This document shows positions 49,263 through 54,592 of a stretch of 64,000 nt of DNA, in pieces; within the stretch, counting starts at the first letter, position 1; every line of letters starts with the position of its first letter. The notes under the pieces are model-generated. The model saw only the letters and a program-made list of their open reading frames with translations. It did not search any database and was not told the DNA's origin. The stretch lies in the sequence record OR352942.1. One strand, written 5' to 3'. The stretch comes from Escherichia phage AV112. The translations under genes were made by a program, and so were the position numbers.

Positions 49263-49733
49263 TTAATCATGTTTCCACACCCCGTCGGTATTTGTCCAAA
49301 GTCGCTGATTATCTGATCCTCGCCACAGTTTTTTGGTCGGAAGATTTTTCTCATACTTCCCATCAATAATAACATCAACATATTTAAGCATTTCTAGTTG
49401 TTTAATATCTTCAAACTTATATCCTGTCCACAACCAAATGCTTTTATTGGGATAAAGTTTTTTTACTGTTTGAACAATGCAATGAACAACATCTTGGTTA
49501 TCAGGATAGAGAGGGTCTCCTCCAGTTATAGTTAATCCTTCTATATAATCATTATTCAAACATTCAATTAATTGTTCCAGCGTTTCACCGGTGAATGGGA
49601 TACCATTTCTAGCGTTCCATGTTGATTTATTATAACACCCCTCGCATTTATGCAAACAACCTGTAACGAAAAGAACGACCCTGCAACCGGGGCCATTCAC
49701 AAAATCGCAAGGATAAAATCTATCATAATTCAT
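49263..49733 (-). CDS. nrdG: anaerobic ribonucleotide reductase activating protein (radical SAM), 156 aa
   Basis: Cys cluster CLHKCEGC; 156 aa; directly downstream of nrdD. Confidence 0.85.
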   Translation of the reverse strand: MNYDRFYPCDFVNGPGCRVVLFVTGCLHKCEGCYNKSTWNARNGIPFTGETLEQLIECLNNDYIEGLTITGGDPLYPDNQDVVHCIVQTVKKLYPNKSIWLWTGYKFEDIKQLEMLKYVDVIIDGKYEKNLPTKKLWRGSDNQRLWTNTDGVWKHD

Positions 49734-51547
49734 TGGTGTTTAACCCTATGCATGATTTCTTTATTTTTGCCGAGATTAAATCCGCGTTCGTTCGGATTTC
49801 CAAGATAACCGCATGTTCTTCTTATTGTGTTCATCTTTTTAGGATCAGTTTCTCCGCAAACTGAACAAACAAATCCGGTTTCAGTAGGAGTCATTTCATG
49901 AGTACTTCCACATGTAAAACATTTATCTACTGGCATATTAACACCAAAATAATCTAAATGTTGTGCAGCATAATCCCATACAGCCTCAAGACCTTTTAGG
50001 TTATTTTTCATATCAGGAAGTTCAACATAAGAAATGTGACCACCAGTCGCAATGAAATGATATGGCGCTTCACGAGAAATCTTTTCAAACGGAGTAATAT
50101 TTTCTTCTACTGAAACATGGAAACTATTAGTGTACCAGCCTTTATCAGTAACATCTTTTACACTTCCATATTTTTCTGTATCAAGTTTACAGAAGCGATA
50201 ACAAAGGTTTTCAGCAGGAGTAGAATACAAGCTAAAAGCAAAACCGGTTCTTTCAGTCCACTGCTTAAGACGAGCATTCATTTTAGTTAAAATTTCTTGC
50301 CCAATATCACGTCCGGCAAGAATATTCAATTCGTGAATACCAATGTATCCTAAAGACACTGAACTTCTACCGTTTTTAAATAACTCAATTATATCGTCAT
50401 CAGGTTTAAGACGAACCCCGAATGCACCTTCTTGGTAAAGAATAGGAGCAACAGTAGCTTTAACTCCTTTTAAGGAACTAATTCTACACATCAAAGCTTC
50501 AAAACACAAATCCATTCGCTCATTGAACAATTCGATAAATTTCTGTTCATTGAACTGTGTTCCAATATAAGAATCTAACGCAATGCGAGGAAGATTCAGT
50601 GTTACAACACCGAGATTATTACGTCCATCAAGAATTTCATTACCAGTCGAATCTTTCCATACGCTCAAGAAACTACGGCAACCCATTGGAGAAACAGGAA
50701 TAGACGAACCAGTGATAGCTTTATTGTTCTTAACTGAAATAATATCAGGATACATTCTTTTGCTTGCGCATTCTAAAGCAAGCTGTTTAATATCATAGTT
50801 CGGGTCGTCTTTATAAAGATTAACACCCTCTTCAACGAACATAACAAGTTTAGGGAAAATAGGAGTTATTCCATCACGACCAAGGCCTTTAATACGATTT
50901 TTCAGAATTGCTTTCTGAATCATTCGTTCAGTCCAGTCAGTTCCAGTACCAAATGTAATTGTTACAAAAGGCGTTTGTCCGTTTGAACTAAAGAGAGTAT
51001 TTACTTCGTATTCATACGCTTGGAATGCATCATATACGTCTTTTTCTGTTTTAGATTGAGCATAATTCAACGCATCAGCGATTTGCCATTTTTCTGCATC
51101 TTCAATATGTTTTGCATAGGTGCGTTTAACATAAGGAGAAAGAACTTTATCGACATTCGCAAATGTAGTTCCACCATACTGATGCGAAGCAACCTGTGCG
51201 GTAATTTGTGCCATAATTGCAGTAGCAACACCAATCGATTTAGGCGTTTCAATTTGAGCATTGCCTAATTTAAATCCATTCTCAAGCATTCCTTTTAAAT
51301 CTACTAAACAGCAATTAGTAAAAGGCAATGATATACTGTAATCTAAATCATGAAAATGAATTAATCCAACATTATGTGCATTTACAATATGACTTGGAAG
51401 AATACGACAAGCGATATGTTTAGAAACAATACCGGCCATTAAATCTCTTTTTGTTGGAAAGACACGAGAATCTTTGTTGGCGTTTTCGGTATTTAATTCT
51501 TTATCTTTATTTGAAATAAAATTTAAAACATCTTTCTCTAAAGACAT
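49730..51547 (-). CDS. nrdD: anaerobic ribonucleoside-triphosphate reductase (class III), 605 aa
   Basis: C-terminal Cys-rich zinc ribbon CFTCGS...CSVCG and glycyl-radical-type tail RTCGYLG; 605 aa as in T4. Confidence 0.9.
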   Translation of the reverse strand: MSLEKDVLNFISNKDKELNTENANKDSRVFPTKRDLMAGIVSKHIACRILPSHIVNAHNVGLIHFHDLDYSISLPFTNCCLVDLKGMLENGFKLGNAQIETPKSIGVATAIMAQITAQVASHQYGGTTFANVDKVLSPYVKRTYAKHIEDAEKWQIADALNYAQSKTEKDVYDAFQAYEYEVNTLFSSNGQTPFVTITFGTGTDWTERMIQKAILKNRIKGLGRDGITPIFPKLVMFVEEGVNLYKDDPNYDIKQLALECASKRMYPDIISVKNNKAITGSSIPVSPMGCRSFLSVWKDSTGNEILDGRNNLGVVTLNLPRIALDSYIGTQFNEQKFIELFNERMDLCFEALMCRISSLKGVKATVAPILYQEGAFGVRLKPDDDIIELFKNGRSSVSLGYIGIHELNILAGRDIGQEILTKMNARLKQWTERTGFAFSLYSTPAENLCYRFCKLDTEKYGSVKDVTDKGWYTNSFHVSVEENITPFEKISREAPYHFIATGGHISYVELPDMKNNLKGLEAVWDYAAQHLDYFGVNMPVDKCFTCGSTHEMTPTETGFVCSVCGETDPKKMNTIRRTCGYLGNPNERGFNLGKNKEIMHRVKHQ

Positions 51548-52359
51548 AATTCTAATTTATCCTTTTGAAATTCTTCGTCTAAATATGGGTTCCAACCCAT
51601 TTTAAACCTTTTGATGAAATTATCAATTCTAAATTTCGGTAAGTTTAAATCCGCAAAAATAGATGATTTACTTTTAAAATCTGGACCTAAATAATCATAT
51701 AAAATTTCTGCGTATTTTAACCATAATATACAAGTACCAGATTTAATTGCGTTCGGAGTTTTCCAAGGTTTTACACCATACATCGGATTTCCACTTCCTT
51801 TATGCCTGATAGAAGATGAAATTCCAATTTTAATTTTAGCTTCCTTTGTATGCGAAAATCCACGATGCGGATTTTCTTTCCAGTATTTTTTAGAAGCTTC
51901 TGATATTTTCTTTCTGGCTAAATTAGTATGATGCTTTCCATAAAATCCATGATTTTTGCCTTTATTACGATTTCTTTTAATCATGGTTATTGATTGCTTT
52001 TCTCTAGTTTCTTTAGAAGGAGAAATACCATATGTCGTAAATTTGCCATCAGCATATGCTAAATTAAAATACTCTTTATTCCATACATCTTTTTCTATAT
52101 TCTTTTGAAATTCAGCTTCAATGCTAGTTATTTGTTCATCTCCGACTAATTGAAAATATAATATTTCAACTTTCGGCGTTTCTTTCAATAAGGCTTTTTG
52201 AAATTCGGAAGATGACGAAGACGAATAATAAAATTTACCATTTTTATCAATAATATTCGTTCCATCAAAAGTGCAATTGGTTTTACTTCCAATGTAATAA
52301 TATGGTGGGGTTTTAGCATTAATTCTATTAATAAATGATAGTTTATATACTACATTCAT
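51538..52359 (-). CDS. freestanding GIY-YIG homing endonuclease (Seg-like), 273 aa
   Basis: N-terminal VVYKLSF...YYYIGSKTN (GIY-YIG); repeated KNHGFYGKHHT and NPMYGVKPW motifs typical of Seg/I-TevI-type linkers. Confidence 0.65.
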   Translation of the reverse strand: MNVVYKLSFINRINAKTPPYYYIGSKTNCTFDGTNIIDKNGKFYYSSSSSSEFQKALLKETPKVEILYFQLVGDEQITSIEAEFQKNIEKDVWNKEYFNLAYADGKFTTYGISPSKETREKQSITMIKRNRNKGKNHGFYGKHHTNLARKKISEASKKYWKENPHRGFSHTKEAKIKIGISSSIRHKGSGNPMYGVKPWKTPNAIKSGTCILWLKYAEILYDYLGPDFKSKSSIFADLNLPKFRIDNFIKRFKMGWNPYLDEEFQKDKLELCL

Positions 52360-52829
52360 TTTAAACTCTTTCTAAGCTGCTTTTTGAATGAAGCTATTAA
52401 TTGTGTTTTGGTATCAGATTCATTATATTCAAATCCTCTTTGAAGCATCTCGGCCATCATTTCCTCTTTACCTAGTCTTGAGAACTCTTTAGTTTTGTCT
52501 GGAACAAAATTAGGATGGATATTATTATCAGAATAATCTTGTTTCAAATAAGCGAGAAGAGCTTCAAGCCATTCGAGGTAGTCGACATCACGTCCTTTAA
52601 GACCGGAACGGTTGAACTTATGCTTCATTTGACCTTCTGCTGCGTTGCACAGATTACAGAGTAATCCACGAACTCTACCGGCTTTTGGCCCGTTTAATTC
52701 ATGGTCGTGGTCAAGATGGTTACCTTGAACATCAGGGTCTAATTCACGGTGGCAAATAGGACACTTACCGTTCTGTGCATCATAAAATTTTTGTTTTTCT
52801 TCTTTATATTTTGCGCCTGATAATAACAT
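52356..52829 (-). CDS. 49: endonuclease VII (Holliday junction resolvase), 157 aa
   Basis: Zinc motif CPICHRE...HLDHDH...CNLCN; 157 aa as T4 gp49. Confidence 0.85.
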   Translation of the reverse strand: MLLSGAKYKEEKQKFYDAQNGKCPICHRELDPDVQGNHLDHDHELNGPKAGRVRGLLCNLCNAAEGQMKHKFNRSGLKGRDVDYLEWLEALLAYLKQDYSDNNIHPNFVPDKTKEFSRLGKEEMMAEMLQRGFEYNESDTKTQLIASFKKQLRKSLK

Positions 52830-53590: not shown

Positions 53591-53926
53591 TTAACCCCGG
53601 AGTTTATTGAGCTCTTCATAATCAATCCAGGATTCTAGCCCTGACGGCAGGTCACATTCAATGTTCCACAGAAGCTCTTCGATGGCTTGTAGGCGATTAT
53701 ATTCTTCAACAGTAATAGTAACCATTGTTTCAGGCTTTTTAACCATCATGTCATTCATCAGAATGTACAGGTCTTCACAAACAGCCGGGTCGTCCCATGT
53801 CCATATTTCAGCATCTCGAACTAATGAAGTCGGAATCGAATTTAAAACTTCAAGCTTAGTAGGAGCGTCAGGGCCGAGAAGAGTTGCTACAAATTTATAC
53901 GCTCTGGCGAAATCAATATCATTCAT
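53591..53926 (-). CDS. hypothetical protein (111 aa)
   Basis: ORF-track ORF. Confidence 0.4.
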   Translation of the reverse strand: MNDIDFARAYKFVATLLGPDAPTKLEVLNSIPTSLVRDAEIWTWDDPAVCEDLYILMNDMMVKKPETMVTITVEEYNRLQAIEELLWNIECDLPSGLESWIDYEELNKLRG

Positions 53927-54186
53927 TTAAAATATTCTCGCAGTTGGTCGAATCCACCAATGTGACTTCCGTCAGGAGCAAACACTTGAGGCATAGTCAA
54001 TCCGACTTGTGATTCACGTCCAAGCTTAACCAGAAGCTCAGCAATTTTCTCATCATCAAAAACACCTTTTTCTGGCATAACATTAATGAATTCGAATGGC
54101 TGTTTCTTAACAGTCAGTAATCGTTTCGCATTATCGCAATAAATGCATTTATGAATAGTAGAGTCATACCCGTACACTTTAAACAT
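53923..54186 (-). CDS. nrdC: thioredoxin/glutaredoxin-like protein NrdC (about 87 aa; start at MFKVYG)
   Basis: MFKVYGYDSTIHKCIYCDNAKRLL ... MPQVFAPDGSHIGGFDQLREYFK, near-identical to T4 NrdC as recalled; CxxC motif. Confidence 0.85.
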   Translation of the reverse strand: MFKVYGYDSTIHKCIYCDNAKRLLTVKKQPFEFINVMPEKGVFDDEKIAELLVKLGRESQVGLTMPQVFAPDGSHIGGFDQLREYFK

Positions 54187-54592
54187 TATTTTTCCTTTCA
54201 TCGATTAAATATGCAACGCCAAATACAATACATGTAATAAAACCTGTGATACAGATAGAAACCAACAACACTGTACCAAAGAACCAAATCAAGTTATCTT
54301 TAGTAGTTTGTTTGATATCCATCTCACGAATTTCTATAGCTATTGTATCACCTTTATTCAGAAGCGTATAAAACGACGGTGATACATGCCTGTCAAAAAC
54401 TCGACCTTGTTCATCTTTATAAACTGCAATAAATTCCAGTTTAGAATATTTTCCTGTAGATTGACCTGAAATTAATTCCACTACCTCCACAGGAATTACT
54501 TTAGTTTCCATGTAAGTATTCTGGCTGTTCCAAATGAATGGAATGATGGCAAAAACTAAAGCTACAATAAAACAACGAAGGCTATATCTCAT
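54179..54592 (-). CDS. membrane protein (137 aa)
   Basis: N- and C-terminal hydrophobic helices. Confidence 0.4.
   Translation of the reverse strand: MRYSLRCFIVALVFAIIPFIWNSQNTYMETKVIPVEVVELISGQSTGKYSKLEFIAVYKDEQGRVFDRHVSPSFYTLLNKGDTIAIEIREMDIKQTTKDNLIWFFGTVLLVSICITGFITCIVFGVAYLIDERKNNV

Follow-up and report, generated by a model that had tools for sequence, protein, structure and literature searches.

Among phage T4's homing endonucleases, SegG is an active, free-standing GIY-YIG enzyme (PMC2988022 Table 1; PMC2330249) with its target in the neighbouring gene 32 (PMC2988022; PMC2330249). The T4 Seg enzymes cut in the gene adjacent to their own (PMC2988022 Table 1), and their genes are copied into the recipient together with flanking DNA (PMC2988022, PMC2330249). 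A gene of this kind is described here from Escherichia phage AV112 (OR352942.1), in which a stretch of 64,000 nucleotides (nt), hereafter the window, carries a seg-like open reading frame (ORF) between gene 49 and nrdD. The product of this ORF is probably a free-standing homing endonuclease in the T4 SegG family, with a GIY-YIG domain, a NUMOD3 linker, and a SegG-type C-terminus; we put the probability of this reading at about 0.8. A first inspection of the DNA, made from the sequence without database searches (the original prediction), had proposed a Seg-like GIY-YIG homing endonuclease between nrdD and gene 49, a proposal that is now supported by homology to SegG, by a profile match, and by the presence/absence pattern of the gene among related phages.

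51538–52359, minus strand: seg-like ORF of 273 amino acids (aa) with an ATG start; predicted free-standing SegG-family homing endonuclease gene (ORF listing)

The seg ORF is real and under purifying selection. It is no chance reading frame, because it is intact in 11 of the 12 alleles examined (from different phages), has a ratio of non-synonymous to synonymous polymorphism (pN/pS) of 0.07–0.38 (about 0.13 over the whole ORF), and matches phrog_7504, 'homing endonuclease', with an E-value of 1e-33.

Domain architecture of the encoded protein

The protein can be divided into three parts, of which the linker and the C-terminal domain overlap slightly:

52036–52359, minus strand: N-terminal catalytic domain with a GIY-YIG fold (aa 1 to about 108)
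51763–52023, minus strand: linker (aa 113–199) with two NUMOD3 units and a partial third (Pfam NUMOD3)
51541–51774, minus strand: C-terminal domain (aa 196–273; 78 aa), homologous to SegG (Smith–Waterman, alignment A3)

T4 SegG aligns with the N-terminal 125 aa at 40–42% identity (tblastn, E = 2e-19; BLASTP, E = 4e-27, aa 1–126). When 20 SegG-like N-terminal domains were compared by hhalign with a profile of Pfam-positive GIY-YIG domains, the two matched over 85 columns with a probability of 87.7% (E = 3.4e-6) and in the correct register, such that the GIY, YIG, Glu, and Asn positions coincide (Y5, Y22, E81, and N99). VVY5KL and YY22IGS correspond to the GIY and YIG strands and align to both motifs of the Pfam-positive proteins; E81 and N99 (in YFN99L) align with the conserved Glu and Asn of canonical domains (compare E75 and N90 of I-TevI). 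The residues of the catalytic domain that are invariant in the family are Y5, R12, P19, Y22, G24, S25, K26, Y44, S47, E81, N99, and A103, and Y5, Y22, G24, S25, E81, and N99 are unchanged in all 19 of 19 relatives, which are 33–61% identical. The N-terminal domain has the three-stranded beta-sheet and flanking helices of the GIY-YIG fold.

The linker contains KGKNHGFYGKHHT (aa 132–144), followed by a second NUMOD3-like unit, NPHRGFSHTKEAKIKIG, and then by a partial third (SGNPMYGVKPW). NUMOD3 (PF07460) was matched in two stretches at 29.7 bits, against a gathering cut-off of 20.4 (E = 6.3e-7). The N-terminal GIY-YIG-type motif and the repeated linker motifs (quoted as GKNHGFYGKHHT) on which the original prediction was based are thus both present, the former as VVYKLSF (aa 3–9) and YYYIGSK (aa 20–26). 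A sequence search of the PDB with the family profile (alignment A1) recovered the DNA-binding linker of I-TevI only (DNA-binding domain 1i3j, profile positions 147–192, E = 2.6e-4), with the catalytic domain unmatched. About 62 residues of the linker are missing from SegG and from its orthologue P0004 (alignment A3).

Beyond the linker, homology to SegG resumes. The Smith–Waterman score of the C-terminal domain is 62 against T4 SegG and 137 against P0004; 2000 shuffles of this comparison gave 25 ± 4.6, and none reached 62 or 137 (z about 8). Conserved positions in this domain follow the pattern PW...W...F..GW.P..D.E (alignment A3). No fold is assigned to it, because the confidence of the AF2 model is low here (predicted local distance difference test, pLDDT, 32–56); it is presumed to be a sequence-specific DNA-binding domain. 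By these alignments, the protein is SegG-like at both ends, with a NUMOD3 linker added.

Insertion site and the linked nrdD tract

The gene occupies the boundary between two conserved genes and is accompanied by a foreign version of the first part of nrdD:

52356–52829, minus strand: gene 49 (endonuclease VII; Pfam PF02945 and PF09124), upstream flank
49730–51547, minus strand: nrdD (anaerobic ribonucleotide reductase large subunit; PF13597, E = 3.6e-171), downstream flank and presumed target
52356–52359, minus strand: ATGA overlap of the gene 49 stop and the seg start, marking the insert's left edge (window junction aligned with LF82-3, RB69, and T4; annotated empty sites)
51538–51547, minus strand: 10-nt overlap of the seg stop (TAG) and the nrdD start (ATG)
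51323–51547, minus strand: foreign nrdD 5' tract (nrdD nt 1–225, codons 1–75), which travels with seg

The DNA flanking the insert is matched by 741 phage records, only 48 of which hold the gene; the seg gene itself was found in 48–49 phage records, at 96.7–100% identity, and the window is identical (100%) at the seg locus to Mosigvirus phages AV113 and 55. At the empty sites of LF82-3, RB69, and T4, gene 49 is joined to nrdD by the same ATGA, and the net insert is 812 bp, exactly between the stop codon and the start codon. The seg TAG lies 7 nt beyond the nrdD ATG. Both the polymorphism among related phages, which the original prediction had proposed as a check, and the overlap with the nrdD start that it had reported are therefore confirmed.

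The insert is associated with a replacement of the 5' end of nrdD. Compared with LF82-3, an empty-site Mosigvirus, nrdD nt 1–225 are 63% identical at the nucleotide level and 63% at the amino acid level, against 95% for the remaining nrdD, and gene 49 is 98–100% identical right up to the junction. Copies of the tract with at least 95% identity occur only in seg-positive records and in OLB35, a seg-deletion derivative; all 48 of the 48 seg-positive records have it. A donor was sought among phage records, and none other than OLB35 has the tract without seg, the nearest nrdD sequences of other phages reaching no more than about 75% identity. The alleles of nrdD fall into two classes, 599 records being of the susceptible type and 49 of the seg-linked type, with zero intermediates. 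This strict linkage points, indirectly, to co-conversion of nrdD nt 1–225 with seg, and the tract is presumed to be a cleavage-resistant version of the target region.

The same unit is found outside Mosigvirus. The cassette of about 1.04 kb, comprising seg and nrdD codons 1–75, is 97–100% identical between Mosigvirus and Tequatrovirus, the carriers in the latter being fPS-2, Lv5cm, Lutter, and PD112, whereas gene 49 is only 67–85% identical between the same genomes. In Lutter, gene 49 is T4-like (97–100% identity, compared with 67–85% to the window), nrdD nt 1–225 are window-like (99%, compared with 62% to T4), and the sequence is T4-like again from nt 241. One and the same 1.04-kb unit has thus entered two genera, and its boundaries are identical in both.

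Some of these carriers have further endonuclease genes: fPS-2 and Lv5cm have seg upstream of, and an I-TevII intron within, the same nrdD, and Lv5cm adds a segC/segH-like gene between nrdD and nrdG, so that one nrdD can be accompanied by up to three endonuclease genes. Of these nrdD-associated genes, only the upstream seg is present in the window (compare 49263–52359).

Within the window, nrdD is a single 605-aa ORF without an intron, and nrdG lies downstream; the two genes overlap directly, leaving the slot between them empty. We infer that an AAGGA within the 3' end of seg serves as the ribosome-binding region of nrdD. No T4 late-promoter or MotA-box consensus was found upstream of the seg ORF, which fits the T4 seg cassettes, likewise promoter-less (PMC2988022), and scans for promoter and terminator consensus gave background level only. 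No paralogues of the seg ORF were found in the window. Further upstream, at about 53900–54330 (upstream of pin, in the 49.x/nrdC region), ungapped identity to LF82-3 falls from >95% to about 25–35%; this drop begins approximately 1.1 kb upstream of gene 49 and is probably due to an indel or to a differing set of small ORFs in a hypervariable stretch.

A distant homologue and a candidate cleavage region

A 58%-identical homologue is present at the same site in L014, a Logan contig (SRR27536177, 2188–3180) from a distant T4-like phage. The order in this contig is gene 49, a leftover of the NrdD N-terminus of 55 codons, the seg gene, and an entire nrdD that has a 5' end of its own. The homologue is split by one frameshift, and may be a pseudogene or the product of an assembly error. 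The leftover stops at nrdD nt 165; exactly at this point the sequence of native nrdD is ATTATGAAT, and ATGAAT opens the seg ORF. In L014, the seg-linked N-terminus of NrdD has residues in common with the window tract (ELNTEN, PTKRD, and GLIHxHDLDY) that the empty-site alleles lack. Searches of viral contigs and metagenome contigs for further distant relatives at this site yielded nothing other than close copies and true SegG genes, leaving L014 as the sole distant example.

That a homologue of only 58% identity retains the pairing of seg with its nrdD module makes this pairing look old. Together with the position at which the leftover stops, this suggests that seg and the 5' module of nrdD may be long-standing partners and that the break may be situated near nt 160; as the clue comes from the single contig L014, we regard this as a tentative and rather doubtful placement. 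The nrdD stretch 121–180 is among the most diverged of the tract (57% identity), and in seg-less alleles the candidate region, nrdD nt 150–175, reads 5'-CCGTCTTTTATTATGAATGCGCATGAA-3'. Its counterpart in the window is:

51373–51398, minus strand: counterpart of nrdD nt 150–175, the candidate cleavage region in seg-less alleles (hypothesis only)

Loss and decay of the gene

Three phages have altered forms of the locus. OLB35 (L006, MH992122.1, 2480–2730; approximately window 51320–51547) is a Mosigvirus without seg, the record of which is flagged UNVERIFIED. Its nrdD opens with the first seven seg codons (ATGAATGTAGTATATAAACTAT; MNVVYKL), fused in frame at about nrdD codon 9, and the seg-linked nrdD tract is kept at 96–100% identity. 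OLB35 thus looks like the product of a deletion in which the presumed immunity is retained and the NrdD N-terminus is chimeric.

In FL18 (L007, PP400780.1, 2501–3992), seg codons 1 to about 203 are fused to the last ~17 codons of nrdD, and nearly all of nrdD, about 2 kb, is gone; the junction falls at a near-repeat of 18–20 nt (CCTTGGAAAACTCCGAACGC in seg, TCTTGGAAATCCGAACGAACGC near the 3' end of nrdD). A canonical GIY-YIG seg-like gene (276 aa) comes next in FL18, in the nrdD/nrdG slot. Pu-Krd-SF3 (L025, 601–1423) has one additional T in a T-run (GAA-TTG to GAATTTG, at about seg nt 733), by which the protein is truncated at aa 245; this frameshift is either early decay or a sequencing error. 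Judged by its match length of 823 nt, Pu-Krd-SF4 probably has the same frameshift.

Proposed homing cycle

By analogy with the T4 Seg enzymes, we infer the nuclease activity of the protein, the identity and position of its target, the immunity of the tract, and homing itself. The seg gene would be read from the gene 49–nrdD transcript, without a promoter of its own, with gene 49 presumably supplying both the transcript and the upstream homology, and it would use the translation start region that serves nrdD in insert-free phages. When a seg-positive phage and a seg-less relative infect together, the enzyme would cut the seg-less nrdD within its first ~225 bases, the best guess for the position being near nt 160, and the break would be repaired by phage recombination from the seg-positive genome. 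Because the alleles are just 63% identical from the end of gene 49 to nrdD nt 225, repair would resolve only outside this stretch, and the 1.04-kb cassette would be copied as one unit; poor homology over this stretch would account for a linkage that is absolute and boundaries that are fixed. The nrdD 5' tract of the carrier itself, which differs at many positions, is presumed to be uncut. The 5' end of nrdD is probably the target, and most likely the target lies inside nt 1–225, because differences that could protect are absent from gene 49 and abundant in the tract.

What moves may be a cassette of two parts, consisting of the endonuclease and a replacement 5' module of the target gene, in which the pairing is old, the end of the L014 remnant marks the cut, and OLB35 is a resistant, endonuclease-free end state; we rate this fuller version at slightly below even odds. 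If it is true, the carrier is immune and every homing event swaps the N-terminus of an enzyme. Public genomes provide a clean natural case of the proposed homing cycle, in four states: invaded (48), susceptible (about 600), resistant after loss of the gene (OLB35), and decaying (Pu-Krd-SF3 and FL18).

Evidence against homing and alternative explanations

Several observations weigh against assigning the ORF to the active SegG-family homing endonucleases. Pfam PF01541, the search that the original prediction had named as its test, gave no match to close homologues and none, even at E ≤ 10, to the full ORF or to the domain by itself, and NCBIfam TIGR01453 reached 22 bits on the seg ORF, far below its cut-off of 56. 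Foldseek found no significant match in the PDB for the full-length model (E > 1). No Arg was seen by alignment inspection at the position of I-TevI R27. The distribution of the cassette could, in principle, arise by ordinary recombination without nuclease drive. The altered forms in OLB35, FL18, and Pu-Krd-SF3 exist, and therefore the gene is dispensable for the phage, as is expected for a selfish element. The placement of the cleavage site depends on one metagenomic contig (L014). Finally, no paper was found that names a seg gene between 49 and nrdD or characterises the window protein.

Two of these points, the Pfam result and the Arg, also hold for T4 SegG. It has no Pfam match at all, and none in NCBIfam either; because SegG is listed as active and is equally missed, the silence of Pfam is uninformative for the SegG subfamily, and we rejected the negative PF01541 result as a refutation and attribute it to a gap in model coverage. 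The Pfam GIY-YIG models also miss the relatives P0003, P0005, and P0009, an annotation blind spot for the SegG subfamily. T4 SegG has the same Arg deviation. In place of an R27-type Arg, the family has the invariant R12 between the GIY and YIG strands, K26, and Y44-x-x-S47; the SegG subfamily may do without the canonical helix Arg in its GIY-YIG active site, perhaps by means of R12.

The unseen Arg and the silence of Pfam would also suit a decayed or domesticated relic, that is, a protein that does not cut DNA, is kept for the nrdD start signals in its 3' end or as a DNA- or RNA-binding regulator of nrdD, and has spread by ordinary recombination. The nrdD start and a likely Shine–Dalgarno sequence are embedded in the 3' end of seg, such embedding favours retention of endonuclease genes according to a review of T4 (PMC2988022), and decay forms exist. 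However, T4 SegG is active with the same set of residues, including the missing Arg (PMC2988022); Y5, Y22, E81, and N99 do not vary among 19 members that are 33–61% identical; pN/pS is about 0.13 along the entire ORF; and the occurrence of a near-identical cassette in two genera points to a spread that was recent and efficient. A relic is improbable on this evidence. So, by a slightly wider measure, is an active site-specific nuclease with its main target elsewhere than nrdD (in gene 49, at another locus, or in a competing phage or host), for which the tract would be hitch-hiking donor DNA from the original lineage. That the tract differs throughout, at synonymous and non-synonymous positions, does speak for foreign ancestry rather than for a few resistance mutations, and some Seg enzymes have roles beyond homing; SegB, for example, is described as driving amplification of anti-defence loci (PMC13096335). 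Yet gene 49 is 98–100% identical between seg-positive and seg-less Mosigvirus and lacks protective differences, the linkage of seg and tract is absolute in 48 records and conserved with the 58%-identical homologue, cleavage by the known Seg enzymes of T4 falls in the adjacent gene (PMC2988022 Table 1), and OLB35 lost seg and kept the tract.

Least credible is that the ORF is not of the GIY-YIG type, its VVYK...YIGSK likeness being a coincidence in an AT-rich frame attached to NUMOD3 repeats. The absence of a PF01541 match at E ≤ 10 and the full-length Foldseek result (E > 1) would be expected in this case, but the explanation is already largely refuted by the hhalign match in correct register (E = 3.4e-6), by the homology of the ORF to SegG, and by the invariance of the catalytic Tyr, Tyr, Glu, and Asn, and we give it very little credence. 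A free-standing SegG-family homing endonuclease directed at nrdD thus remains the preferred explanation of the locus.

Comparison with known systems

The window ORF is an uncharacterised new member of the SegG family and an element of an ordinary kind. GenBank records already label it 'homing endonuclease', and the JK42 record labels it 'SegG homing endonuclease', which is valid as a family-level name only. With it, the well-studied set of homing endonucleases of the T-even phages gains a member whose insertion site is new and whose target is probably new as well. The locus shows that elements of this kind shuffle an enzyme's N-terminus among phage genera. Because the Pfam GIY-YIG model misses the SegG subfamily, automated annotation and surveys under-count homing endonucleases. 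A new GIY-YIG enzyme with a long target could have minor use in genome engineering of T4-like therapeutic phages.

The closest described system is T4 SegG (formerly gp32.1), encoded between genes 59 and 32. Its catalytic domain is 40–42% identical to that of the window protein and shows the same set of conserved residues, its C-terminal domain is related to that of the window protein, and both proteins are missed by PF01541. Both genes are promoter-less cassettes between two conserved genes, the ends of which they overlap, and in both the target is expected in the adjacent gene, away from the insertion point, with the intervening DNA obligatorily co-converted (for SegG: PMC2988022, and Liu et al., 2003, as its title indicates). 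They differ in site (49/nrdD rather than 59/32), in presumed target (nrdD rather than gene 32), and in size, the window protein having 273 aa compared with 210, with a NUMOD3 linker of ~62 aa extra. The window ORF is a SegG paralogue and not an orthologue, because the true segG genes (those of T4 and P0004) sit between 59 and 32. Another relative, P0003, adjoins gene 5.

I-TevI and I-TevII have the same modular plan as the window protein, namely a catalytic domain, a flexible NUMOD3-type linker, and a DNA-binding domain, and I-TevII has a 'Y-x-S-S-S' motif after YIG in common with the family of the window ORF. Unlike these enzymes, the window gene is not intronic, and its product is only ~20% identical to them and has no Arg seen at the R27 position; the target of I-TevII in nrdD is its intron site, much further downstream. 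The elements of the SegH/mobC slot (nrdD/nrdG) belong to the same neighbourhood of endonuclease genes around nrdD and nrdG (PMC2988022), and canonical seg-like genes fill this slot in Lv5cm and FL18. They lie at the opposite end of nrdD and, unlike the window ORF, have canonical, Pfam-detectable GIY-YIG or HNH domains.

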